In this document: positions 23,761-63,950 of the stretch, in pieces
Position numbering within the stretch: the stretch's first letter is position 1
How the letters are laid out: every line of letters begins with the position of its first letter
Assembly: GCA_045863395.1 (NCBI GenBank)
Contig: BTVJ01000024.1
Location: 31,996-95,995, forward strand
Direction of reading: 5' to 3'
Source: Myxococcales bacterium
Lineage (GTDB): Bacteria; Myxococcota_A; UBA9042; JABWCM01; BTVJ01
DNA: 64,000 nt
Notes under the pieces: model-generated
Database searches by the model: none
Told to the model about the DNA's origin: nothing
Seen by the model: only the letters and a program-made list of their open reading frames with translations
Position numbers and translations under genes: made by a program

Positions 23761-25194
23761 TCATGGGACAGCGCGAAGCTCATGCTGCGTGGCCAGGTCG
23801 CGCGCCACGAAGTACAGCACGTCTCCCGCGGAGACCGCCTCCCGGACGGCCGAGTCTGCCTCGTCGCGCGCGGAGAACAAGGCCAAAATGGGCTCGCCGC
23901 GGCCGTCGAGCTCGGCGGCGACGCGGGCCGCCCTCGACCGCAGACTCCGTAGATCGTGGTGCGTCACCTCTCCCCACTTGCACTCTGCAACGAGGACGCG
24001 CCCGTCCCCGTCCACGGCGACGACGTCAACCTGATCCCGCGAGTCCGAGTCCCACCACTCTCCGACGCGGAGCGGCCATATCGGGAGGCCCTCGCCCCGA
24101 CGCACGAACTCTCGACATGCCTCCTCGAACACGGGCCCGAGGTGCTCCGACAGTCGAACGGAGACCGACTCATCCCAAAGGCGCCGGGGCTCGACGAGGC
24201 CGATGCTCCCCGCGTGGAGGAGGGGCGCGATCCGCCCGTGCCACAGGGTGATGTAGGGATCCGTGATGCGGTGGAGGGCCCGTTTGGACCGGCGGGGATC
24301 CTTGTCCGTGATGGGGGCCACCCGCTGCACGAGCCCCATCTCCTCCAGCCATCGAAGAGGCCTCTGGAGGGAGCCACCGCTCTGACCGACACGCCTCGCG
24401 ATCCCGCTCCAGGTCCGGTCACCTGTCGCGATGGCCTCGAGGATGGAGTAGTGGACGCGCCCGTCCCCGACAAACGCGTCCAGCATGTGCTGAGCGTCGT
24501 CGACCAGGGGGCCGGACGGGTCCAGCAGCGCGGCGGAGGCGTTCTCCGCGACGCTCAGGGCCGGATCGATGAGCGCCAGGTGGCCCGGCAGGTTGCCGAA
24601 GAGCCCGTAGGCCGTGAGCTGGTCGAGGGGGGCGTAGCTGGGCATGAACCCCGTGGCTTCCTGAAAGGCAAAGGGGCCAAGAGCCAGACGCGCAGTCCGG
24701 CGACCATAGAGGGGCTGGTCCGCGCCCTCGAGGGCCCGCATCGCGCTGACGAACGACCCGCTCAGCACGACCTTCAGCCGGCTGCCGGCCCAGTCGTGAT
24801 CCCAGGCGCTCTGGAGGATGGACGGAAGTGCGGGGGTCGCCCCCACCAGATACGGGAGCTCGTCGAGGACCACGAGCAGCGGCTCGCTCCGGGCTCGCTC
24901 GGTCAGGTAGCCGAGGAGCGCCTCCCAGGACGGGAACGGGACGCCCTGCTTGAGCACCCCGTCGTCGAAGCGGTCCCCGACGATGCGGCTCAGGTGCGCG
25001 AGCTGCTCTGGCTCGGTGCGCCGAGTCGCCTGGTAGTACAGACCGCCGACCGCGCGAGCAAAGCGTGCGAGGACGAAGCTCTTTCCAACGCGCCGCCGCC
25101 CCAGCACAAACACGAGCTGTGGGCGGTCCTTGCGCCACATGGTCTCCAGCGTCCGCCACTCGGCATCCCTGTCGATGATCTCGGCGGGCTTCAT
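23761..25194 (-). CDS. ATP-binding protein (archaeal-type AAA ATPase, wHTH, DUF234 and C-terminal PD-(D/E)xK nuclease-like domain)
   Basis: IIDRDAE, Walker A GRRRVGKS, Walker B VVLDELPYL, LSGS, PLYGRRT, ITDPY, FEEACRE, GEWW, QVDVVA...VAECKW; RBS AAGGAAGG. Confidence 0.9.
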   Translation of the reverse strand: MKPAEIIDRDAEWRTLETMWRKDRPQLVFVLGRRRVGKSFVLARFARAVGGLYYQATRRTEPEQLAHLSRIVGDRFDDGVLKQGVPFPSWEALLGYLTERARSEPLLVVLDELPYLVGATPALPSILQSAWDHDWAGSRLKVVLSGSFVSAMRALEGADQPLYGRRTARLALGPFAFQEATGFMPSYAPLDQLTAYGLFGNLPGHLALIDPALSVAENASAALLDPSGPLVDDAQHMLDAFVGDGRVHYSILEAIATGDRTWSGIARRVGQSGGSLQRPLRWLEEMGLVQRVAPITDKDPRRSKRALHRITDPYITLWHGRIAPLLHAGSIGLVEPRRLWDESVSVRLSEHLGPVFEEACREFVRRGEGLPIWPLRVGEWWDSDSRDQVDVVAVDGDGRVLVAECKWGEVTHHDLRSLRSRAARVAAELDGRGEPILALFSARDEADSAVREAVSAGDVLYFVARDLATQHELRAVP

Positions 25195-25366
25195 GCGGGA
25201 CACCTTCCTTGGACGCTGATGACTCTTCACCCCGTGCCCACCCTCGGTGGGAGCGCCGTCGAAGAGCCAGCGGTGGAAGTTCCACCGGTGGAAGTTCCAC
25301 CGGTGGGACTTCCACCGGTGGAAGCTACAGCACGAGCGAACCCCGATCAAACAGCGCTCCGACCAA
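24531..25366. repeat. ~0.8-kb direct repeat, copy 1 (copy 2 at 63145-63950)
   Basis: Near-identical sequence at an offset of 38614 bp, differing mainly by two 15-bp repeat units. Confidence 0.93.
25271..25330. repeat. Tandem palindromic 15-bp array (CGGTGGAAGTTCCAC x4) upstream of the ATPase gene
   Basis: Units at 25271, 25286, 25301 (2 mismatches) and 25316 (degenerate); unit junctions form the palindrome TTCCACCGGTGGAA. Confidence 0.9.
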
Positions 25367-25547
25367 TTCGCCGAGCTGACCTGTGTTGCTGGCCCGTGTC
25401 CCTGTTGCGTTGTACGCCCCGCGCCGGGACTCGTTGCATCGACGCTGTCAGTGGGCCGGGGGGAAGCAGCCTGTGCGAGGATGGGGGCTGGGTGACGGCG
25501 GTCGGCTGTGGGCGTGAGTCCTTGTGGGGTCGTGGCTGGGACTGCGG

Positions 25548-25830
25548 TCAGGCGGTCCAGCCTTCGGGGGTTCTCCAAATGGCGCCGAGTGTGTGGAGCT
25601 TGGTGAGGGTGGCTTCGAGGTGCTGGTCTGCGGTAGCGAGGAGCTCCTGGAGGTGGCGGCGTGAGACGGGGCCGTCCTGGACCCGGAGCTGCTCGACGAG
25701 GCGGTCATCGAGGGTGGGGGGCTTCGAAGTCGGCTGCGATGAGGCGGGGGGGGGCGGCGGCCAGACAGAGGGAGACAGGCTCGGTGGGGGGTGACGCGAT
25801 GCCGTGCTGCGAGCATGACGGTCGCTTCCG
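25548..25830 (-). pseudogene. Decayed 3' remnant of an AAA ATPase gene with a C-terminal winged helix
   Basis: Fragments in different frames: EPVSLCLAAAPPRL then TLDDRLVEQLRVQDGPVSRRHLQELL...LGAIWRTPEGW; no start; poly-G tracts. Similar G-rich sequence near 63100-63140. Confidence 0.4.
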
Positions 25831-26982: not shown

Positions 26983-27007
26983 AGTGGAGGCGCCGGGAGT
27001 CGAACCC
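26983..27007 (-). repeat. att core, left end: tmRNA (ssrA)-type 3' fragment
   Basis: AGTGGAGGCGCCGGGAGTCGAACCC is identical to 60782-60806; the minus strand reads GGG-TTCGACT-CCCGG-CGCCTCC-A-CT (T-loop, acceptor 3' strand with U70, discriminator A). Confidence 0.88.
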
Positions 27008-27091: not shown

Positions 27092-28318
27092 TCACGAGGG
27101 CTCAATCGGCGCCATTTGGTGTCCAGCCTGTGTCCGTGGCGTGTCCGAGATCCGGGGCGCCGGGCCTGCCCCATTGGGCTCCAGCAGATCGAGGGCAAAC
27201 ACCCATCCCGGGCCGTTCTTGTTCCGGTCATAGACCGAGATCGCCGGGTCGGCCTTGGGGAGGAGCACCTTCCCGCACTCGACGGCCACGGAGTTCGGCA
27301 CGGCCGGGAAGACGTGAATCCGCACGCCTGCGCCATGAACACGCCGGATGTCGTGAAGCGCCTGACGGAAGAGCCCGGCGAACTGGGCCAGCAGCCCGCG
27401 AGTCCTCACGAAGTCGGCCTGGGGTCGGCTCGCCGTGATGCGCCAGATAGGGACGCAGCCGGGTGGAGAGGCAAGGACCTCCTCGTCGTGAACCACGCCG
27501 CTGACGGACAAGACAAGCGCCACGTCGGGCGCGTCACCTGCGCAGTCCTCCGGCGGGTCGAGGGTGAAGCCGTCTCCGCCCTCTCCGGGCGCATCCTGCC
27601 ACGCCCAGGTGTCGGGGACTCGGAGCTTCTGGAAGACGTGGACGGAGGCGATGTCCCCGAGGGCTCGCCCCAGCACCATCAGGAGGGGGATCGGGGCAAG
27701 CGCGAACACCGAGATCGAGGTCGGAGTCGGGTTCCCGAGCGAGGCTCGAAGGGCATCGCGGACCTGGCGAACGATCTCCCCAGCAGTGAAGCTCCAGAAC
27801 TGCGGTTCGTCATCGCGCACGGCCAGGGTGGTCAGGTCGATCGTGAAGTCCCCGCGCTCGGGGTACAGCAAGAGCGGCAGCATCGCCGTCCGCGCCATGT
27901 CCCTCGACACGACGGTCGCCCGTCCTCCGATGTTGGCCTTCACGAAGACGAGCTTCGTCTTGTGGGTTGCCTGCATGTCGAGCAGGTTCGCCACCCGCAC
28001 TTCGTGCTCGCGCTTGAACCGCAGAAGCAGATCCTCGGGGTGCTCCTCTACGGCATCCACGTCGATGAGCCGGTGGTGGTCGAGGCAGAGCAGCATCAGG
28101 TTGGTGATGGCCTGGGCGAGTTCGGCCGACCTCGTCGCGTGTCCTCGCGGGCCTTTCGGGCTGTCGGCGACGATGTGGGCGAAGACCGACCTGTTCATGT
28201 CCCGCTCGGTCAGCTCGTCCACGTCCAGGCGCTTGTTGCAGCCTGGATACTCGCACCGGCCACCCGCTCGTCCGACGAGGGCGAGCTTCACGCTCGGGGA
28301 GATGTAGCTGCTCGACAT
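27092..28318 (-). CDS. cap5: CBASS effector, HNH-SAVED nuclease (Cap5-type)
   Basis: N-terminal CEYPGC...AHIVADSPKGPRG...NLMLLCLDHHRLID (HNH/Zn); SAVED motifs SVFALAPIPLLMVLG, LSVSG, IHVFPAVPNSVAVECG; 11 bp downstream of the CD-NTase. Confidence 0.92.
   Translation of the reverse strand: MSSSYISPSVKLALVGRAGGRCEYPGCNKRLDVDELTERDMNRSVFAHIVADSPKGPRGHATRSAELAQAITNLMLLCLDHHRLIDVDAVEEHPEDLLLRFKREHEVRVANLLDMQATHKTKLVFVKANIGGRATVVSRDMARTAMLPLLLYPERGDFTIDLTTLAVRDDEPQFWSFTAGEIVRQVRDALRASLGNPTPTSISVFALAPIPLLMVLGRALGDIASVHVFQKLRVPDTWAWQDAPGEGGDGFTLDPPEDCAGDAPDVALVLSVSGVVHDEEVLASPPGCVPIWRITASRPQADFVRTRGLLAQFAGLFRQALHDIRRVHGAGVRIHVFPAVPNSVAVECGKVLLPKADPAISVYDRNKNGPGWVFALDLLEPNGAGPAPRISDTPRTQAGHQMAPIEPS
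27119..27146 (+). repeat. Putative integrase arm-binding sites (GTGTCC x3, 11-bp period)
   Basis: GTGTCC at 27119, 27130 and 27141; the same motif occurs at 60709 and 60720, inverted at 60735. Confidence 0.65.
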
Positions 28319-28329
28319 GACCGTGTGGG

Positions 28330-29289
28330 CTACGCGGGGAAGTCCGGCCCGAACACGCGGGCGAGGCGACGGCAGGCTTCCGGCTCGTTCGACGAGGCGA
28401 GCGAAGCAGCGGCCGACAAGGCGTCACGGAGCGAGACCAGCCGCTGCTTGAACTCGACCATCTGCTGGTCGCTCATCCGGGCGAACAGGTCGTTGCCCGG
28501 AGGCAGCGGGAGTTGCACGGACAGGCGGCCCGACCACGAGAACGCGCTGATCATGGACGAGACGACTTGGTGAGTCGCGGACAGGTCGTCGTACTCGACC
28601 TTGTTGTTCCAGACATCCCAGACCGTCTTCTTGCCCGGCGTGAACCAGAGGTAGGCGCACGCGGTCAACGCGATGCCCCTCGGCGCCGCGTTCCCCTCCA
28701 CCGAGAACCCGAAGTCCTTCCACCGCTTCAGGTAGCGGATCACTCGGCGGAACTGGTCGGCGTCGTCGCCGGAGTGCTTCTTCGAGATGAGGTCCGTGAG
28801 GTCGCGTGGGCTCGACTGCACCCACTTCCGCTGGTCGGCCGATGAGTTCTGCTTCCCGGTGGCGAGGTGAAGTCCGCCCCGCATGTCCTTCGCGTACACG
28901 GCGAGATCGACATGGTACAAGGGCTCGCCGCCCTGGCTGTAGAACACTGTGATGCAGGGGCGGCGGAACCCGACCGGCTTCTGGGTGTGCCCGTTCACGG
29001 CGGTGAAGACCCATTCCTTCACCTTGACGGGATCGGGGTACTGGGCCTTGTCGATGTTGAAGACCAGCCCAACGTCGATGTCGAAGTCCCCGGCGACCGG
29101 CTTCACCCCGGTCCCCATGTCGTAGCTGCCCTGGTTGAACGGCTCGAAGGTCGGCCGCTGCGCCCTTGCGAGGCCGTCGCGGAGGCGAGTCAGGACGCGA
29201 TCCCGCTTCTCTCGGAGTTCCGCGTTCTCGTCGAACCGCTTGAGCTTGATGGCCTCGTCGAACGTCCTGAACTTGCTCTGGAGCCCCAC
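28330..29289 (-). CDS. cGAS/DncV-like nucleotidyltransferase (CD-NTase), CBASS synthase
   Basis: FNQGSYDMGTGVKP..GDFDIDVG, RRPCITV.Y, YHVDLAVY, RRVIRYLKRWKD, FGPDFP; GTG start with GGGAGG RBS. Confidence 0.92.
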   Translation of the reverse strand: MGLQSKFRTFDEAIKLKRFDENAELREKRDRVLTRLRDGLARAQRPTFEPFNQGSYDMGTGVKPVAGDFDIDVGLVFNIDKAQYPDPVKVKEWVFTAVNGHTQKPVGFRRPCITVFYSQGGEPLYHVDLAVYAKDMRGGLHLATGKQNSSADQRKWVQSSPRDLTDLISKKHSGDDADQFRRVIRYLKRWKDFGFSVEGNAAPRGIALTACAYLWFTPGKKTVWDVWNNKVEYDDLSATHQVVSSMISAFSWSGRLSVQLPLPPGNDLFARMSDQQMVEFKQRLVSLRDALSAAASLASSNEPEACRRLARVFGPDFPA

Positions 29290-29471
29290 GTCCGCCCTCC
29301 CAGGGTAGGTAGTGTCCGGCCAATGTAGGTACGGATCGCCCGTTGGCAAGGGGCATCCCGGCTGGCCCGAGTCACCGGGGCGCGCCCGGACACCCCGGGT
29401 CTGCGAGCGTGTCAGTGGCCGATGGGTATAGGTGGTGGCCGAGGGAACGCCTTGTCGCCCAGGAGACGCGC

Positions 29472-30950: not shown

Positions 30951-31438
30951 GCGACAAGCCCATCGACATCGAGCGCGAGCGGATCGCCTGCGTCTTCGGC
31001 CTCGGCGGTGGCGAGCTGCACGAGCCCCACCCCGAGTGTCCGGACGAGTGGGACGGCATGATCGCGTACTGGTACGACGGCGTACCCGACTCCGCGACCG
31101 AGCTGCGGGACGTGAACATCGTCGAGTGCTTCGCCTGCGCCGGGATCGGCTACGACGCCGACCGCGATGCCGACTGCCGTTCCTGCGACGGGATCGGGCA
31201 CCACGATCGCGAGGTGCGCACGGCGATCCTGGAGTGCCTCTATGGTGAGCCCGAGCCCCCCGAGGGGTGGGAGCGCATCGCGTCGTTCACGTCGAGCGGT
31301 GAGGCCGAGTGCTGGTGGTGCGGCGACGGCTCGGGCAACGAGGACGAGCGGGCCACCTGCAAGCTCTGCGAGGGCGACGGCCTCATCTACCTCGGCGACG
31401 GCTGGGCCGAGGTGGTGCTCCGCCGAACCTCGGCTTGA
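30947..31438 (+). CDS. Hypothetical protein with DnaJ-type CxxCxGxG zinc-finger motifs
   Basis: CFACAGIG, CRSCDGIG, CWWCGDG, CKLCEGDG; GTGA overlap with the upstream gene. Confidence 0.7.
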   Translation: MSDKPIDIERERIACVFGLGGGELHEPHPECPDEWDGMIAYWYDGVPDSATELRDVNIVECFACAGIGYDADRDADCRSCDGIGHHDREVRTAILECLYGEPEPPEGWERIASFTSSGEAECWWCGDGSGNEDERATCKLCEGDGLIYLGDGWAEVVLRRTSA

Positions 31439-31463
31439 GTACCACTCATTTGAGTGGTAGCAT
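31435..31463 (+). promoter_or_regulatory. Sigma70-type promoter with embedded palindromic operator
   Basis: TTGAGT (31435-40), 17-bp spacer, TAGCAT (31458-63); perfect inverted repeat TACCACTCA-TT-TGAGTGGTA (31440-31459); lexA ATG 8 nt after the -10. Confidence 0.72.
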
Positions 31464-31471
31464 TTCCGCGA

Positions 31472-32089
31472 ATGGAGCCCCTCACCGACAAGCAGCGCCG
31501 GGTGTACGACGAGGTGGAGGCCAGGATCTCTGCTGGTGGCCTCGCGCCGACGCTGCGGGAGCTGTGCTCGCACTTCCGATGGTCGTCCACCGGCACGGCT
31601 CGGGACGCCCTGAACGCCCTCGTCCGCAAGGGCTACCTGCAAGCGGCCGACGGCCGTGCTCGGGGCTACAGGCTCGTCCGCCGTCCGCCGTCCGCCCTGC
31701 GGGTGCCCCTGCTGGGCCAGGTGCCTGCGGGGGTTCCCGTCGAAGCCGTCGAAGTCGCGCATGGGGACGTGCCCGTGCCGGAGCCCATCGTTTCAGCCTC
31801 CGCGAACTTCGCGCTGCGCGTGACGGGCGACAGCATGACCGGGGCGAGCATCCAGGACGGCGACCTCGTGTTCGTTCGCCAGCAGGCCGTGGCCGAGCCC
31901 GGCCAGATCGTCGTGGCCCGCGTAGACGGAGAGGTCACGGTGAAGCGGCTCCGGCGCCAACGAGGACGCCTGGCGCTCGTCCCGGAGAATCCGAGCTACC
32001 GGCCGATCCCGGTCACGGCTGGAACGGAGATCGTCGGGGTCGTCGTCGGCCTCGTGCGCGGCTATGACGGCCGGTCGGTGAGGGTGTAG
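31472..32089 (+). CDS. lexA: LexA-family repressor (island-encoded paralog)
   Basis: LTDKQRRV...PTLREL wHTH; cleavage site VPAG; catalytic Ser in LRVTGDSM and Lys in VTVKRL; PENPSY. Confidence 0.92.
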   Translation: MEPLTDKQRRVYDEVEARISAGGLAPTLRELCSHFRWSSTGTARDALNALVRKGYLQAADGRARGYRLVRRPPSALRVPLLGQVPAGVPVEAVEVAHGDVPVPEPIVSASANFALRVTGDSMTGASIQDGDLVFVRQQAVAEPGQIVVARVDGEVTVKRLRRQRGRLALVPENPSYRPIPVTAGTEIVGVVVGLVRGYDGRSVRV

Positions 32090-32101
32090 AAGGAGGCTCT
32101 G

Positions 32102-32845
32102 ATGGGCGACAACAGCGGCATCGAGTGGACGGACGCGACATGGAACCCGACCGTCGGGTGCACGAAGGTCAGCCCCGGCTGCAAGCACTGCTACGCCGAG
32201 ATCATGCACCGCCGTCTCACGGAGATGGGGATGGCGAAGTACGCCGATCCCTTCAAGGTTGTGCGCCCGTGGGAACCGCACCTCGAAGAGCCCCTTCGGT
32301 GGAGGCAACCCCGGCTCATCTTCGTGAACTCGATGAGCGACCTCTTCCACGAGGACATCCCGTTCGACTACCTCCGGCGGGTCTTCGACGTGATGGTTCG
32401 GGCCCGCCAGCATCGGTTCCAGGTGCTGACGAAGCGCAGCGACCGCCTCCGAGAACTGGCTCCGGGCCTCCCGTGGGCGTCCAACGTGTGGATGGGGGTG
32501 AGCGTCGAGTCGGCGAAGTACGTCCACCGCGTCCACGACTTGCAGACCGTCCCCGCCGCCGTGAGGTTCTTGAGCGTCGAGCCCCTGCTCGGGCCGATCC
32601 CCAACCTGCCCCTGGACGGCATCCACTGGGTCATCGTGGGCGGCGAGTCGGGGTTCAGTGCGCGGCCGATGGCGCTCGACTGGGCCCGCGACATCCGCGA
32701 CCAGTGCGACGAGGCCGGGGCCGCGTTCTTCCTCAAGCAGCTCGGCGGAGTTCGCGACAAGCGGGGCGGCGACCGGGCGACGCTCGATGGTCGGCTCTGG
32801 CGGGATCTCCCCGACGCCTGGGCGGCTCAGATGGTGGCCGGATGA
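32102..32845 (+). CDS. DUF5131 / phage Gp37-Gp68 family three-Cys (radical-SAM-like) protein
   Basis: IEWTDATWNP..GCTKVSPGCKHCYA, FVNSMSDLFH, FQVLTKR, NVWMGVSVE, FLSVEPLL, WVIVGGESG, FFLKQ. Confidence 0.92.
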   Translation: MGDNSGIEWTDATWNPTVGCTKVSPGCKHCYAEIMHRRLTEMGMAKYADPFKVVRPWEPHLEEPLRWRQPRLIFVNSMSDLFHEDIPFDYLRRVFDVMVRARQHRFQVLTKRSDRLRELAPGLPWASNVWMGVSVESAKYVHRVHDLQTVPAAVRFLSVEPLLGPIPNLPLDGIHWVIVGGESGFSARPMALDWARDIRDQCDEAGAAFFLKQLGGVRDKRGGDRATLDGRLWRDLPDAWAAQMVAG

Positions 32846-34014
32846 TCCCGCCGGAGTACCAAGGACGCGAGCAGACGTGGCTCAAGCATCGCGTGCTCGA
32901 CGAGTACCTGAGCGGGTGGGCACACAAGCTGGGCTCCGTTGCCCGGAAGATGGCAGTGAAGCTCTGGTACGTGGACTGCTTCTCCGGCCCATGGAAAACG
33001 AGGACGACGGACCTCAGCGACACGTCGATCTTCCTGGGGCTCAACGCGCTCCAGGCGGCGAGGACGACGTGGGCGGAGAAGGGGGTGCTGATCCAGCTCG
33101 GCGCGATCTTCATCGAGAAGGACGCGACGGCGTTCGCGGAGCTTCAGAAGGTCGTTGCGCAGCACGCCACCGGCATCGACGCCCACACGTTCCACGGGCG
33201 CTTCGCGGATCATCTCGAAGACATCCAGCGGCTGGTCGGGAACGACGCCGCGTTCTTCCTCGTGGATCCGACGGGGTGGGACGGCGCAGCGATGAGGTAC
33301 ATCGCGCCCCTCGTGTCACGGGGTCGGCGTGACGTGCTGGTCAACGTCATGTTCGACCACATCAACCGCTTCAAGGACGACCCCCGGGCGTTCTTGCGCG
33401 AGCAGATGAAGGAGTTCTTCGGGCTGGCGGACGCAGACATCCAGGCCGGGCTCGGAGAAGAAGAGCTGATGGCGTTCTACCGCGAGCGCCTTCGCACCGT
33501 GTGCGGGCTGCCCTACACGGCGGACCTCGCAGTTCCGCACCCGACGGTCGAACGGACGAAGTTCCGTTTGGTCGTCGGCGGGCACCACCCGGAGGTTCTG
33601 CGCTTGTTCCGCGACGTGGAGCGCAAGGTCATGGGCGAGGAGGCCGCCGTGGTGCGAACGGAGGCCAAGGAGCGCGACCGGCTCGATCGAAGCGGCCAGA
33701 TGGCGCTCTTCGACCCGGCACCTCCGAAGGAGAGCCCACGGTACGCCGCACAGCGTGAGGAGGGGCAACGACAGGCGCGCAACCTCGTCCCCGCGTTGCT
33801 GCGAGAACGTGGCCCGCTGACGTACAAGACCATCTGGCCCATCGTCCTCCAGCAGTGCCACATCCCCGAGGGCGACCTGGCCCACCTGCTTGCTGAACTT
33901 CGGACGGATGGTGTCGTCGAGGTCGAGGGGCTCCGGCCTCGTGAGCGTCGGGTGAAGGACGAGCACCTCGTGCGCATCAACGTCGGGGCGGCCGACAACA
34001 CGCGGAAGCGGTAG
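32842..34014 (+). CDS. tcmP: Three-Cys-motif partner protein (SAM methyltransferase-like fold, C-terminal wHTH)
   Basis: EQTWLKHRVLDEYL, YVDCFSGP (SAM motif I-like), FIEKD, FFLVDPTGW, DVLVNVM; ATGA coupling to DUF5131. Confidence 0.87.
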   Translation: MIPPEYQGREQTWLKHRVLDEYLSGWAHKLGSVARKMAVKLWYVDCFSGPWKTRTTDLSDTSIFLGLNALQAARTTWAEKGVLIQLGAIFIEKDATAFAELQKVVAQHATGIDAHTFHGRFADHLEDIQRLVGNDAAFFLVDPTGWDGAAMRYIAPLVSRGRRDVLVNVMFDHINRFKDDPRAFLREQMKEFFGLADADIQAGLGEEELMAFYRERLRTVCGLPYTADLAVPHPTVERTKFRLVVGGHHPEVLRLFRDVERKVMGEEAAVVRTEAKERDRLDRSGQMALFDPAPPKESPRYAAQREEGQRQARNLVPALLRERGPLTYKTIWPIVLQQCHIPEGDLAHLLAELRTDGVVEVEGLRPRERRVKDEHLVRINVGAADNTRKR

Positions 34015-34053
34015 GCGGCCTATCGTCCTGCCCCTGGCAGGAGGCCGCCGCCC

Positions 34054-34662
34054 ATGAACGAAACCTGCCAGCACCACCCTGCCGATTCCCGAGTCGAGCG
34101 CCTCGCCACCTGGCTGCGTGAGCAGGGCGACGACGCCCCCGGCTTGATCGAGTCCGTCGCACGGGCGATCGGCCTCGACGTTCTGCTTCTCGAACGCGGT
34201 GACAAGCAGCACCGGCTCCACCGCGTCGGCCACGCCCTCGCCCACGAGATCCACCAGATCACGAAAGCGTGCGTCGGCCGTCAGGCCGCCTGCATCGCCG
34301 CCGCCGTCCGCGAGGTCGAGCGGGCCATCGTCGTGCTCCGCCGCGTCCGTGGCCGCCTCGACGACGGCGACCGGCACCCGATGGCGGACTATGCCAGGTT
34401 CTCCAGGCTGGCGGACGAGGCGGTGTCCCTGCTCGCCATCGCGGAGCGCGACGATCGCCAGCGGGCAATGATGGTCGTTCGGGCGCGGGAGCTGATCGCC
34501 GATCTGGAGGAGCAGCTCGTGAGGGTCGAGGACGCGAACCCAGACGACCCCTTGTGGGCAGGGCTCGACCCGCCAAGCGGAACGATTCTCGAGGTGTACG
34601 ACCAGCCAGGTCGGCGCCCGTCGGGAGCGGCTGAACCTGCCCGATCTACTTCGCAGGGCTGA
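34054..34662 (+). CDS. Hypothetical helical protein
   Basis: RBS AGGAGG; coding-like composition; no recognised motif. Confidence 0.6.
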   Translation: MNETCQHHPADSRVERLATWLREQGDDAPGLIESVARAIGLDVLLLERGDKQHRLHRVGHALAHEIHQITKACVGRQAACIAAAVREVERAIVVLRRVRGRLDDGDRHPMADYARFSRLADEAVSLLAIAERDDRQRAMMVVRARELIADLEEQLVRVEDANPDDPLWAGLDPPSGTILEVYDQPGRRPSGAAEPARSTSQG

Positions 34663-58759: not shown

Positions 58760-59255
58760 GAGCCGGAGAACTTCGGCCGAGGTTCGAGCGCAGGCGCTCC
58801 GAAGTTCGGTGCCGAAGTTTCGTAGGGTGCCCCTCGGAACTTTCGGGCCGAACTTCACGCCCCGACGTTCCACCTCGTTGGCGCCGTCGTCCTGCTCGTC
58901 GCCGTCGAGCAGGAGCACGAAGATCACCTCGTCGGCGCCCGACCCATCATCGAGCACGAGCACGACGCCGAGCGGGCCGCCGATGGCCTCGACGCTTCCG
59001 GGTCGATCCGTGACACCGCTTGGAAAACCCAATCGGGTTGATCGGGTAGCCAGATCCGCCGCACTCAACCTGCACGCAAAAAGCAACCGAGCGGGCCCAA
59101 CGGGGGCCTCGACTCCGTGGGGAGATGCTCAGCGGGTGCCCTGATGCGGGTAGCTCTGGGTTGGTGGGGTCATCTGCGCGCCCCGCCGGGTAACGTGTTC
59201 CAGGACGCCCTGGATCCCCCGGCAAGCCGGGGTGAAGGGGACGCGGAGGAGCGAC

Positions 59256-59774
59256 GTGGAGAAGGACAAGGACATCCTGGACGAGCTTGGCCTCGGCGGC
59301 GTCGTGTCCGGGCCGATGGAGGCCTTCGTCCTCGGGGAAGATGCACCCCAGAAGCGGGCGGGTTCGGCTGCGCGTGCATCCACGCAGGCGGACTCGACGT
59401 GGTGGACGCACACCGAAGTGCGCAACCACCTCCGCGTGGATGTCCGCACGCTCTTCGAGCGGATGCGGGACACCCCGTCGCACATCAAGCGGCCATGGGT
59501 GAACATCGGGAGCGCCAAGAAGCCCACCTACCGATGGCGCTCAGCGGTCGTGGACAACTGGTGGATCGAGGTGAACGAATGGCGAGCATCGACGATCGGG
59601 GCGACGGCTACCGGGTCCGTTGGCGCGACCCCGACGGTCAGGCGAGGTCGAGGCAGTGCCCAGACCTCGCGACGGCCCGGAGGCTCAAGCGCGAAATCGA
59701 GCAGGTCGTCGCCGAAGGACGACGCTGGGAGCCTCGTGACGCTCGTCCGCTCCCTGACCTCCGCGAGATCCTGA
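59256..59774 (+). CDS. Xis-like wHTH protein overlapping the integrase 5' end
   Basis: WWTHTEVRNHLRVDVRTL...PWVNIG...YRW...VDNWW; RBS GGAGGA. Confidence 0.58.
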   Translation: MEKDKDILDELGLGGVVSGPMEAFVLGEDAPQKRAGSAARASTQADSTWWTHTEVRNHLRVDVRTLFERMRDTPSHIKRPWVNIGSAKKPTYRWRSAVVDNWWIEVNEWRASTIGATATGSVGATPTVRRGRGSAQTSRRPGGSSAKSSRSSPKDDAGSLVTLVRSLTSARS

Positions 59775-60703
59775 CCGCGTACATCCGCGACAAGGCCCGC
59801 GTTCTGGCGTCGGGCACGGCCGAGCGGTACGCCCGCAACTTGGAGATCTTCCTCCGGTGGTTGCAGGAGCGGGAGGGGGCGCGGGGCAAGTTGTTTCCCG
59901 ACCTGCTCACGAAGAACCTGCTCGCCGAGTTCTACGAGGCGCTGGCGGGGGACGGACGGCATGGTCGGCCCCGGCGCGACTCGACGAGGCGCAAGATCGT
60001 CGAGGTCGTCCAGCTCGCCTGGGAGTGGGCCTACAACGAGGACGAGTGGAGCGCCTCCGTGCCGAGGCCGCGCAGCATCGAGATGCGCCGGGAAGAGGGC
60101 GAGCTGACCGTCGCCCCGACCTGGGCCGAGATGGACGCGGTGGTCCGCGCCTTCGACCAGGAGGCGTGGCACCACAAGCTCGGCATCGTGCTCCGCTTCA
60201 CCGGGCTCCGCGTGCAGCAGGTCATGGGCCTCACCTGGGAGGACTTCGACCTCGAACGGGCCACCCTCCGCGTGCGGGGCGAACTCTGCAAGAGCCGCCA
60301 AGAGCGGCGGGGCCGGATCATCCCCATCTCGAAGCACCTCGTGGACATCCTGTCCGGCTGGGGCCGCCGGGAAGGGTTCGTCATCACCACGAACCGGCGG
60401 GGCCGCCGCGAGCGGCTCGCCCGGCCGCGTGACCTCGACCGCGCCTGGACGCGGGCGGGGGTTCGGGCTTCCGCCTGGAAGGGGCGTCCCCACCACGCCT
60501 TCCGCAAGGGCTTCGTGTCCGAGCTTCGCCGGGCGGGGGCCGACCCGGACGCGGTCGAGTACCTCGTCGGGCACAGCCTCGGGCTGCGGGGCGTCTACAC
60601 GGATCCCGATGCGCTCGCGCTGCGCCAAGCGGTGGCGCTGATCCCTCCGCTCACCGCCACCACGGCGATCGTGAGCCTCGATTCGCGGCGGGCGGCGGAG
60701 TAG
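59579..60703 (+). CDS. Tyrosine integrase with N-terminal arm-binding domain
   Basis: MASIDDRGDGYRVRWRDPDG arm domain; FTGLR (R), CKS (K), HAFRK, VGHS, VYT (Y); next to att. Confidence 0.93.
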   Translation: MASIDDRGDGYRVRWRDPDGQARSRQCPDLATARRLKREIEQVVAEGRRWEPRDARPLPDLREILTAYIRDKARVLASGTAERYARNLEIFLRWLQEREGARGKLFPDLLTKNLLAEFYEALAGDGRHGRPRRDSTRRKIVEVVQLAWEWAYNEDEWSASVPRPRSIEMRREEGELTVAPTWAEMDAVVRAFDQEAWHHKLGIVLRFTGLRVQQVMGLTWEDFDLERATLRVRGELCKSRQERRGRIIPISKHLVDILSGWGRREGFVITTNRRGRRERLARPRDLDRAWTRAGVRASAWKGRPHHAFRKGFVSELRRAGADPDAVEYLVGHSLGLRGVYTDPDALALRQAVALIPPLTATTAIVSLDSRRAAE

Positions 60704-60781: not shown

Positions 60782-60808
60782 AGTGGAGGCGCCGGGAGTC
60801 GAACCCGG
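60782..60808 (-). repeat. att core, right end: ssrA-type 3' fragment with complete T-arm
   Basis: Minus strand CCGGG-TTCGACT-CCCGG-CGCCTCC-A-CT; 25 bp identical to 26983-27007. Confidence 0.88.
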
Positions 60809-62941: not shown

Positions 62942-63808
62942 TCAAAGTCGTTGACACGTTCCGGCGGAGCGGGGCCAAGTTGTGAACGAGCACTGAGAAC
63001 CGCGGAGATCGGTGCACGCCGTCAGGGTTTGGGGGGACGGGTCCGTGGACGGGCTGGTTCGGGGTGAGGAGTCGAGCGGCGCGGGGGGTGCGTCGGGTAG
63101 GCGGTGGGGGGGGCGGCGGTCAGGTCGGAGCCGGGACAGCGGGACGGCGGAGGCGTTCTCCGCGACGCTCGGTGCCGGATCGATGAGCGCCAGGTGGCCC
63201 GGCAGGTTGCCGAAGAGCCCGTAGGCCGTGAGCTGGTCGAGGGGGGCGTAGCTGGGCATGAACCCCGTGGCTTCCTGAAAGGCAAAGGGGCCAAGAGCCA
63301 GACGCGCAGTCCGGCGACCATAGAGGGGCTGGTCCGCGCCCTCGAGGGCCCGCATCGCGCTGACGAACGACCCGCTCAGCACGACCTTCAGCCGGCTGCC
63401 GGCCCAGTCGTGATCCCAGGCGCTCTGGAGGATGGACGGAAGTGCGGGGGTCGCCCCCACCAGATACGGGAGCTCGTCGAGGACCACGAGCAGCGGCTCG
63501 CTCCGGGCTCGCTCGGTCAGGTAGCCGAGGAGCGCCTCCCAGGACGGGAACGGGACGCCCTGCTTGAGCACCCCGTCGTCGAAGCGGTCCCCGACGATGC
63601 GGCTCAGGTGCGCGAGCTGCTCTGGCTCGGTGCGCCGAGTCGCCTGGTAGTACAGACCGCCGACCGCGCGAGCAAAGCGTGCGAGGACGAAGCTCTTTCC
63701 AACGCGCCGCCGCCCCAGCACAAACACGAGCTGTGGGCGGTCCTTGCGCCACATGGTCTCCAGCGTCCGCCACTCGGCATCCCTGTCGATGATCTCGGCG
63801 GGCTTCAT
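62942..63808 (-). pseudogene. Truncated second copy of the ATP-binding protein (nuclease half missing)
   Basis: Near-identical to 23761-25194 from the start to VAENASA (63145), then an unrelated Pro-rich tail. Confidence 0.88.
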
Positions 63809-63950
63809 GCGGGACACCTTCCTTGGACGCTGATGACTCTTCACCCCGTGCCCACCCTCGGTGGGAGCGCCGTCGAAGAGCCAGCGGTGGAAGTTCCACC
63901 GGTGGAAGCTACAGCACGAGCGAACCCCGATCAATCAGCCCTCCGACCAA
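63145..63950. repeat. ~0.8-kb direct repeat, copy 2, with 2 units of the 15-bp array (63885-63914)
   Basis: Alignment with 24531-25366. Confidence 0.93.

Follow-up and report, generated by a model that had tools for sequence, protein, structure and literature searches.

Why would a mobile island in a bacterial chromosome carry a LexA repressor of its own, placed directly ahead of two enzymes, DUF5131 and TcmP, for whose families we found no functional paper by title or abstract opening in the literature searched? The locus lies in a 64,000-nt stretch of DNA (the window) from a Myxococcales bacterium (GCA_045863395.1, contig BTVJ01000024.1, positions 31,996-95,995, forward strand), the genome of which, G000, amounts to 8.77 Mb. 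Our comparison of this locus with its relatives points to a LexA subfamily whose operator is unreported in the literature searched and which likely serves to induce DNA-modifying defence cargo.

The palindrome and its probable repressor

Relatives of the window were picked from metagenomes by the recognition-helix pattern W-x-S-T-G-T-A-R-D alone, a pattern taken from relatives found by a prior LexA search. The scan gave 79 loci with GC contents of 0.44-0.72, 76 of which match LexA; they form 54 clusters at 90% identity. With the window palindrome set beforehand as the consensus and up to four mismatches allowed, we found it in 50 of the 53 clusters that include upstream DNA and in 0 of 883 background windows. 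Thirteen of the positive clusters match it without a mismatch, 21 with one, 12 with two, two with three and two with four, and the 46 clusters within two mismatches compare with a best background match of five. The site is nearly always 120-145 nt ahead of the helix, and its location is fixed relative to lexA irrespective of what lies upstream. The three clusters that lack it (L050, L053 and L081) encode N-domain-only or degenerate proteins in which the protease domain is degenerate or missing. In these comparisons it is the conservation of the palindrome at a fixed place, and not palindromy as such, that exceeds chance. The predicted operator tracks the recognition helix, and comparison strongly supports the predicted binding of LexA to a dyad over its own promoter.

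Of 401 host-phylum genomes, two (G000 and G098) have the helix pattern, both with the operator, and the order in G098 is box-lexA-SplB-like-tcmP. A scan of the same 401 genomes for the operator only returned 5 matches besides G000 versus 18 for a reversed control, that is, chance level, and lexA accompanied it only in G098. A protein scan of genome contigs gave, among the matches listed, three LexA-like proteins, all unrelated to the WxSTGTARD clade; the clade was also absent among the 20 best plasmid matches (all approximately 40% identical) and among the best matches in 60 relatives, and the helix pattern had 0 matches in viral contigs.

Could the palindrome instead form a hairpin that terminates the upstream gene, or be bound by some other protein? 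It comes directly after the stop of the upstream open reading frame (ORF), and similar palindromes occur in 21 viral contigs with lexA near none of them by tblastn; the 8 of these that we inspected were judged unrelated. Of 57 altered base pairs in the arms, however, 51 lose pairing, 4 become G-U and only 2 compensate for each other; nor is there a U-tract downstream. Because pairing is mostly broken, the element behaves as a site read as sequence by a protein, and the terminator reading was rejected. Given in addition that the position is fixed relative to lexA and that the site is absent where LexA is degenerate, either version of this explanation is hardly credible.

The surroundings of the 50 sites are promoter-like: (i) a hexamer starting with TTG lies 16-19 nt ahead of the -10 element in 41; (ii) the first three positions of the -10 element are T, A and T at frequencies of 0.96, 0.98 and 0.74; and (iii) an in-frame start lies 4-10 nt past it in 43, which fits a leaderless mRNA. 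In the window the lexA ATG at 31472 sits 8 nt past the -10 element with no sequence resembling a Shine-Dalgarno (SD) element in between. Leaderless translation, proposed originally for this one gene, is thus probable for lexA in most of the WxSTGTARD clade, judging from the spacing.

The window LexA scores 175 bits against TIGR00498 (cut-off 111) and contains a winged helix-turn-helix (wHTH; PF01726) and an S24 peptidase domain (PF00717), which together with a scissile Ala-Gly and a Ser/Lys dyad places it in the LexA family. Its Ala86-Gly87, Ser121 and Lys158 align with A84-G85, S119 and K156 of E. coli LexA, so that the autocleavage residues are intact, as had been claimed, in a host that is RecA-positive. 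In an alignment of the clade (77 rows) Ala-Gly is kept in 66, Ser in 64 and Lys in 60, and the misses are mostly contig ends or truncated or frameshifted rows. The recognition helix is indeed divergent: G, R, D and A replace N41, E44, E45 and H46 of the E. coli protein. In a quick, unrooted tree with support by SH-aLRT (the Shimodaira-Hasegawa-like approximate likelihood ratio test) only, one branch (SH-aLRT 94) splits all W-x-STGTARD proteins from 36 other LexAs, including the host's. As a separate observation, two clusters (L063 and L082) keep the operator, have lost Ala-Gly and Ser/Lys and head an FmdB-type Zn-ribbon gene, and appear to represent a non-cleavable derivative.

A site matrix built from the 50 operators finds 1 site of at least 12 bits in G000, and 311 kb of related loci gave no second operator with it. 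A separate LexA, 40% identical to that of the window, is encoded on host contig C85, and the host has two recA genes; recA carries the host box TGAACA-N2-TGTTCA, of which no copy at up to two mismatches was found in the window. Since there is a single operator site in a genome with its own LexA, SOS box and RecA, the window lexA circuit is, on sequence grounds, private and separate from the host SOS response. A private circuit is what the original prediction had proposed, and the comparison supports it: the operator follows the helix, is unique in the genome and is unlike the host box. The single site also sets this LexA apart from a canonical SOS master regulator, whose operators would be spread over the genome at recA, lexA and genes for repair; here the box at recA is of the host type.

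The architecture of the window operon agrees with its earlier description as a tight lexA-DUF5131-tcmP unit (Table 1). The palindrome is perfect over 20 bp and fills TTGAGT-N17-TAGCAT, lying between -35-like and -10-like boxes with a spacer of 17 nt. The lexA stop codon (32087-32089) is followed by a 12-nt gap that contains AAGGAGG, and DUF5131 and tcmP share an ATGA overlap. The hairpin after tcmP is a possible end of the operon; it also covers an SD-like GGAGG of a 202-aa ORF of no known family (from 34054, within 34015-34662). An Rfam search of the window gave 0 matches. In an RNA-library run (X3) that was chosen by means of the window itself, six contig pieces of 171-263 nt fall inside lexA, DUF5131 and tcmP, the first from 31486, whereas the list has no long piece from the neighbouring 20 kb; such contigs can show neither starts nor levels and were not used as evidence.

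Table 1. Coordinates in the window of the lexA operon, its predicted signals and the repeats that bound the island
Feature	Position	Strand	Remarks
Left att-like 24-bp repeat, copy of tmRNA 3' end	26984..27007	-	bounds 33.8-kb island
Predicted -35 hexamer TTGAGT	31435..31440	+	overlaps stop codon of upstream Zn-finger ORF
Predicted operator, palindrome TACCACTCA-TT-TGAGTGGTA, core CCACTCA-N2-TGAGTGG	31440..31459	.	from sequence and comparison
Predicted -10 hexamer TAGCAT	31458..31463	+	overlaps right arm of operator
LexA paralogue, 205 aa, likely leaderless, helix WSSTGTARDAL	31472..32089	+	from profiles and alignment
Strong Shine-Dalgarno AAGGAGG for DUF5131	32090..32096	+	from sequence
DUF5131 (PF07505), 247 aa, radical-SAM fold, invariant C20-x6-C27-x2-C30, PADLOC PDC-M30B/M41B	32102..32845	+	
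TcmP (TIGR04474), 390 aa, class I methyltransferase fold, weak PDC-M30A match	32842..34014	+	
Strong RNA hairpin without U-tract, -30.1 kcal/mol, z -3.98	34015..34048	+	
Right att-like 24-bp repeat	60783..60806	-	beside tyrosine integrase 59117-60703

Cargo behind the repressor and its mobile setting

Cargo could be read in 43 of the 54 clusters, 11 having been dropped: 6 without readable downstream sequence, 3 degenerate ones, which have no box, and 2 dead-protease ones, which head a Zn-ribbon gene. All 43 cassettes open with a DNA- or nucleotide-modifying module. These are (i) restriction-modification (R-M) methylases or type IIG enzymes in 15; (ii) SplB-like radical S-adenosylmethionine (SAM) enzymes in 10, with TcmP next in all 8 that are long enough to show it; (iii) TcmP and DUF5131, in either order, in 9; (iv) modules with the helical domain of a 5-hydroxymethyldeoxyuridine (5-hmdU) kinase (HMUDK_hel) in 8, some with AcpS-like and thymidylate-kinase-like genes and 2 displaying only the AcpS-like gene; and (v) an anti-phage dCTP deaminase in 1 (L100). 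We saw no recA, uvr or translesion-polymerase gene in the cargo of these 43 clusters, and imuA, imuB and dnaE2 are likewise not in the window cargo and were seen in none of the 43. Starred branches of the tree force at least four changes of the cargo label for R-M, three for DUF5131, two for SplB-like and two for HMUDK_hel modules, which argues for repeated swapping; cargo labels are shared among kin, and the tree is no test of co-evolution.

What did not survive of the original prediction is the fixed lexA-DUF5131-tcmP triad. The pair is present in only 9 of the 43 readable clusters, and lexA was found within 1.5 kb of DUF5131 in 0 of 30 host-phylum loci (best hits drawn from 30 of the 65 genomes that were positive out of 301, inspected over +/-1.5 kb). 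As far as the sequences tell, the conserved unit is the repressor with its predicted operator, behind which the cargo is swappable.

At L046, L096, L101 and L099 a methylase follows lexA and a nuclease is convergent on the opposite strand. A MazG_C gene is convergent in five HMUDK_hel loci (L075, L077, L102, L112 and L122), some of which also have the AcpS-like and thymidylate-kinase-like genes; neither the HMUDK_hel nor the MazG_C gene has a PADLOC match in the copies tested, and the combination is a candidate modification or defence system in its own right.

Recombinases, integrases and transposases lie near the cassettes, and the window cassette is part of an island of 33.8 kb (26984-60806) that contains two tyrosine recombinases, a DUF927/Cch replication protein, ParA, ArdC, type I R-M genes and a cyclic-oligonucleotide-based antiphage signalling system (CBASS). 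The tmRNA gene whose 3' end the island repeats copy lies elsewhere, on contig C44. The CBASS, a CD-NTase followed by an HNH-SAVED effector, occupies the left island end (27092-29349, minus strand). The nearest relative that we fetched (L085:2096-4752) has ArdC, a Zn-finger gene, lexA and DUF5131 in common with the window, and AbiEii replaces CBASS there. Two near-identical copies of an archaeal-type ATPase/DUF234 gene (23761-25578 and 62942-63934; 98-100% over matched stretches) lie 38.6 kb apart. A 15-nt tandem palindromic repeat marks the 5' end of this gene, and HepT/MNT, DUF4258-HTH and AbiEi/AbiEii toxin-antitoxin pairs are found near the copies.

What the DUF5131-TcmP pair may do

DUF5131 scores 315 bits against PF07505 and TcmP 145.5 bits against TIGR04474 (cut-off 53), and as adjacent genes they constitute the gene pair of PDC-M30/PDC-M41 (PADLOC: PDC-M41B 6.6e-106 and PDC-M30B 1.8e-100 for DUF5131, PDC-M30A only 4.7e-7 for TcmP). 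A sequence search found no solved structure for either. The DUF5131 model (pLDDT 91.3) has a three-Cys motif on a partial TIM barrel, as in radical SAM enzymes, with a non-canonical Cys spacing; C20, C27 and C30 are invariant in 119 sequences, and RadicalSAM.org lists DUF5131 as a subgroup (PMC9477430). The best fold match is spore photoproduct lyase (SPL; Z 13.1, root-mean-square deviation (rmsd) 3.0, 196 residues aligned), followed by viperin (Z 11.1), and Foldseek matches are weak (best E 1e-3). The window DUF5131 has no hit to the SPL profiles PF20903 or TIGR04070, and the SplB-like relatives score 72-88 against the SPL cut-off of 400. The TcmP model (pLDDT 94.4) has a class I methyltransferase fold with RlmJ, an adenine-N6 RNA methyltransferase, as best match (Z 15.5, rmsd 3.2, 204 aligned; Foldseek 3.8e-6). 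D45-x-F47-x-G49, E92 and D142-P143-x-G145 are invariant in TcmP, and its C-terminal domain looks winged-helix-like by secondary structure; PF22560 is present in some homologues. A natural DUF5131-TcmP fusion exists (P0240). The earlier idea of an Fe-S/SAM enzyme pair is in keeping with these models, in which both proteins adopt the folds of nucleic-acid enzymes, SPL-like and RlmJ-like.

The pair is found well beyond the repressor clade: DUF5131 occurs in 65 of 301 host-phylum genomes, and 181 phage records match it. Host-type SOS boxes are present in 9 of the 30 DUF5131 loci versus 1.8 expected, 6 of the 9 at the operon start, an enrichment which suggests that the pair has been wired to LexA repeatedly, through either the host box or a repressor of its own. 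A link to damage is also seen in M. tuberculosis, where mitomycin C induces Rv2734, which we take to be the DUF5131 protein, 3.7-fold and Rv2735c 6.2-fold, clustered with recX-recA (PMC5057432); BCG_2748c, presumably the counterpart of Rv2735c, has a partner domain with a three-Cys motif (PMC7387457). Phage slots between integrase and immunity repressor hold defence genes, and the pair is found in such a slot in the Gordonia temperate phage ThankyouJordi (L170:2992-5570, MK801727.1). In that phage DUF5131 is annotated as hypothetical and TcmP as a methyltransferase, and 8 of the 9 phage records that match its TcmP are Gordonia phages. A conjugative Pseudomonas plasmid (L171:3495-7012, NZ_CP124633.1) has two annotated tcmP genes approximately 1 kb apart.

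We favor a scenario, to which we give a probability of roughly 0.58, in which the island LexA represses lexA-DUF5131-tcmP until RecA is activated on single-stranded DNA, and the pair, once released, would probably modify bases in DNA, as a means of defence or of self-marking. A LexA dimer over the promoter spacer would keep the operon low, and we consider binding and repression at the palindrome very probable. RecA on single-stranded DNA would trigger the predicted self-cleavage of LexA and turn the operon on; RecA-dependent induction is a good expectation. Upon entry into a repressor-free host there may be a burst of expression until repressor accumulates, a possibility toward which we lean. 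Weak leaderless translation would keep the repressor scarce and the strong SD would give much cargo per transcript. DUF5131 would then make a 5'-deoxyadenosyl radical that acts on a DNA base, and TcmP would bind DNA and SAM and transfer or position a group. That DNA is the substrate seems likely; between a written modification and the reversal of a lesion the odds are about even. We favor a defence or self-protection mark over repair because of the sibling cargo behind the same repressor.

Several observations weigh against this scenario. The window promoter is weak, matching 8 of 12 consensus bases and uncalled by a promoter scan, and G000 contains 121 perfect 9-N2-9 palindromes (4 at a GC of 45% or less), so that the window alone is no proof of an operator. 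Of the 43 cargo calls, 37 come from profiles or tblastn and 6 from inspection of short fragments by eye. In four cassettes, those with type IIG enzymes at L114, L120 and L123 and with the dCTP deaminase at L100, the effector itself is behind lexA, so the placing of only a protective arm there is a tendency and not a rule. The neighbours of the TcmP pair vary (DUF6602, SduA-like, Cas3, AEP-TOTE, methylase, helicase) with no constant nuclease, and for this reason a restriction-type self mark is not evident. Motif IV of N6-adenine/N4-cytosine amino-methyltransferases is (D/N/S)PP(Y/F), of the DPPY type; the corresponding position of TcmP reads DPTG, with the D-x-F-x-G motif I present, and the RlmJ Z score exceeds those of unrelated methyltransferases by only 1-2 units. 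In mycobacteria the equation of Rv2734 with DUF5131 and of BCG_2748c with Rv2735c is presumed, and Rv2735c is co-transcribed with recA (PMC3062782). Finally, PDC systems are predictions from embedding in BREX, DISARM or R-M loci (bioRxiv 2024.01.29.577857), and no function of PDC-M30/M41 was shown in the literature searched.

Some of these points would suit a different role for the same private switch, that of governing a lesion-repair or tolerance pair in which an SPL-like enzyme reverses a damaged base recognised by TcmP. An SPL fold under SOS control would suit repair just as well. TcmP is found with SplB-like enzymes too, and SplB is reported as SOS-regulated in several species (PMC8565304). 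Host-type SOS boxes ahead of the DUF5131 pair, the damage-induced mycobacterial genes next to recA (with our assignment of DUF5131 and TcmP to them) and the want of a fixed nuclease partner point the same way. Yet in relatives the slot that the pair occupies is filled by R-M methylases, by 5-hmdU-kinase-like modules or by an anti-phage deaminase, and the cargo examined showed neither a polymerase nor recA or uvr. The distribution of the pair is patchy and mobile, and the SPL-like radical SAM enzyme M6 gp53 installs a DNA modification (PMC8989533). We regard repair as the main rival, if a doubtful one. It is improbable that LexA is mainly an establishment timer, like the C protein of an R-M system, which has the cargo on at arrival and then off, with damage induction secondary. 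C-protein operons open with a leaderless, autoregulated gene and a palindromic box (PMC4824078), and the likely leaderless lexA, the methylase-first layouts with the nuclease opposite and the mobile contexts would all suit a timer; a timer needs no protease, however, the autocleavage residues are kept in most rows of the alignment, and both full-length dead-protease clusters head the Zn-ribbon gene and not DNA-modifying cargo. Quite improbable, too, is a toxic or abortive effector that acts on RNA or nucleotides by viperin-like or RlmJ-like chemistry. Viperin is the second fold match, RlmJ and Trm1 both methylate RNA, in one relative the repressor stands ahead of a dCTP deaminase and tight repression would suit toxic cargo, but the pair often occurs without a visible dedicated repressor, SPL is 2 Z units ahead of viperin and most sibling cargo acts on DNA.

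The locus adds a predicted LexA operator, new to the literature searched, with a matching recognition helix, and shows a single repressor lineage that mobile DNA has reused ahead of DNA- or nucleotide-modifying cargo of five kinds or more. If the island LexA does hold such cargo in check until RecA is activated, R-M and other defence enzymes would be tied to a RecA-type alarm independent of the host SOS box; sites without modification are known to appear both after damage and when a new host is entered (PMC4231737). The function of the widespread, uncharacterised DUF5131-TcmP pair could accordingly be sought under DNA damage and among reactions on DNA bases, and the compact repressor-operator pair could act as an orthogonal damage sensor. 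More tentatively, the WxSTGTARD LexA may be a portable, host-independent damage or entry switch for the DNA-writing arms of defence islands, and DUF5131-TcmP a new DNA-modification system whose SPL-like radical enzyme and methyltransferase-fold partner write an undescribed base modification once induced.

Relation to known regulators and enzymes

There is precedent for LexA proteins that diverge together with their sites. Seventeen LexA motifs are reported in PMC8565304, which ties lexA duplication to motif divergence; the motifs quoted in its text, a part of the 17, differ from CCACTCA-N2-TGAGTGG, and the literature searched gave no paper that joins lexA and an SOS box with the halves CCACTCA and TGAGTGG. 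Like canonical LexA of the SOS response (E. coli CTGT-N8-ACAG), the window protein has a wHTH and an S24 domain, Ala-Gly, Ser/Lys and a 20-bp dyad over the predicted promoter, and the window operator and the host box share a central CA-N2-TG. Unlike the canonical system, it is island-borne and has one operator per genome, with none at recA or the host lexA. LexA2 of P. putida is a duplicated LexA with a diverged box, and a study of Patescibacteria LexA is said to report R-M systems under LexA. In a close precedent, lexA2-imuA-imuB-dnaE2, lexA-imuABC cassettes are self-regulated (PMC3765255). As there, the host LexA is joined by a second one, which stands first in an operon of its own and has a private palindrome; the helix and operator differ, and the cargo, swapped between lineages, consists of DNA-modifying or defence genes in place of mutagenic polymerases. 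A second LexA paralogue was also noted in class relatives of the host (L014 and L019) and in L169 (G098), with helix FR[AS]VQ[ST]A[AR]xHL and its own palindrome right after TTGACA. At L014 and L019 that palindrome reads GCAGACA-N2-TGTCTGC, the genes that follow are imuA/imuB-like (by eye), and these lexA-imu cassettes share the TTGACA-palindrome-ATG layout.

The resemblance to C-protein R-M systems lies in the likely leaderless, presumably autoregulated first gene, the palindromic box and, for 15 of 43 relatives, R-M cargo. A C protein is a small XRE HTH controller that lacks a protease and as a rule sets the timing of the nuclease, whereas here a LexA with autocleavage residues usually heads the methylase and the nuclease is often convergent; in the window the regulator is a 205-aa LexA, and the cassette contains no restriction endonuclease. 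The CapH-CapP defence regulator pair uses a separate metalloprotease. BrxR/CapW is one regulator family upstream of many defence systems on mobile elements, as passages of PMC9122589 describe. The WxSTGTARD LexA is like both in standing, as one family, ahead of varied defence systems on mobile elements, and unlike both (WYL sensing in BrxR/CapW, the separate metalloprotease of CapH-CapP) in being a predicted one-protein autoprotease of the RecA-responsive type with a single conserved operator.

On the side of the enzymes, PDC-M30/PDC-M41 is the same gene pair (TIGR04474 with PF07505), which in the window stands behind a LexA of its own and not under that of the host. SplB and phage M6 gp53 represent the nearest solved fold of DUF5131 and carry out radical chemistry on DNA bases; DUF5131 differs from them in being shorter (247 aa), in its C-x6-C-x2-C spacing, in an identity of only 12% and in having a partner with a methyltransferase fold. 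What we describe is the logic of lexA2-imuABC carried over to cassettes for defence and modification, and the predicted operator is new to the literature searched.

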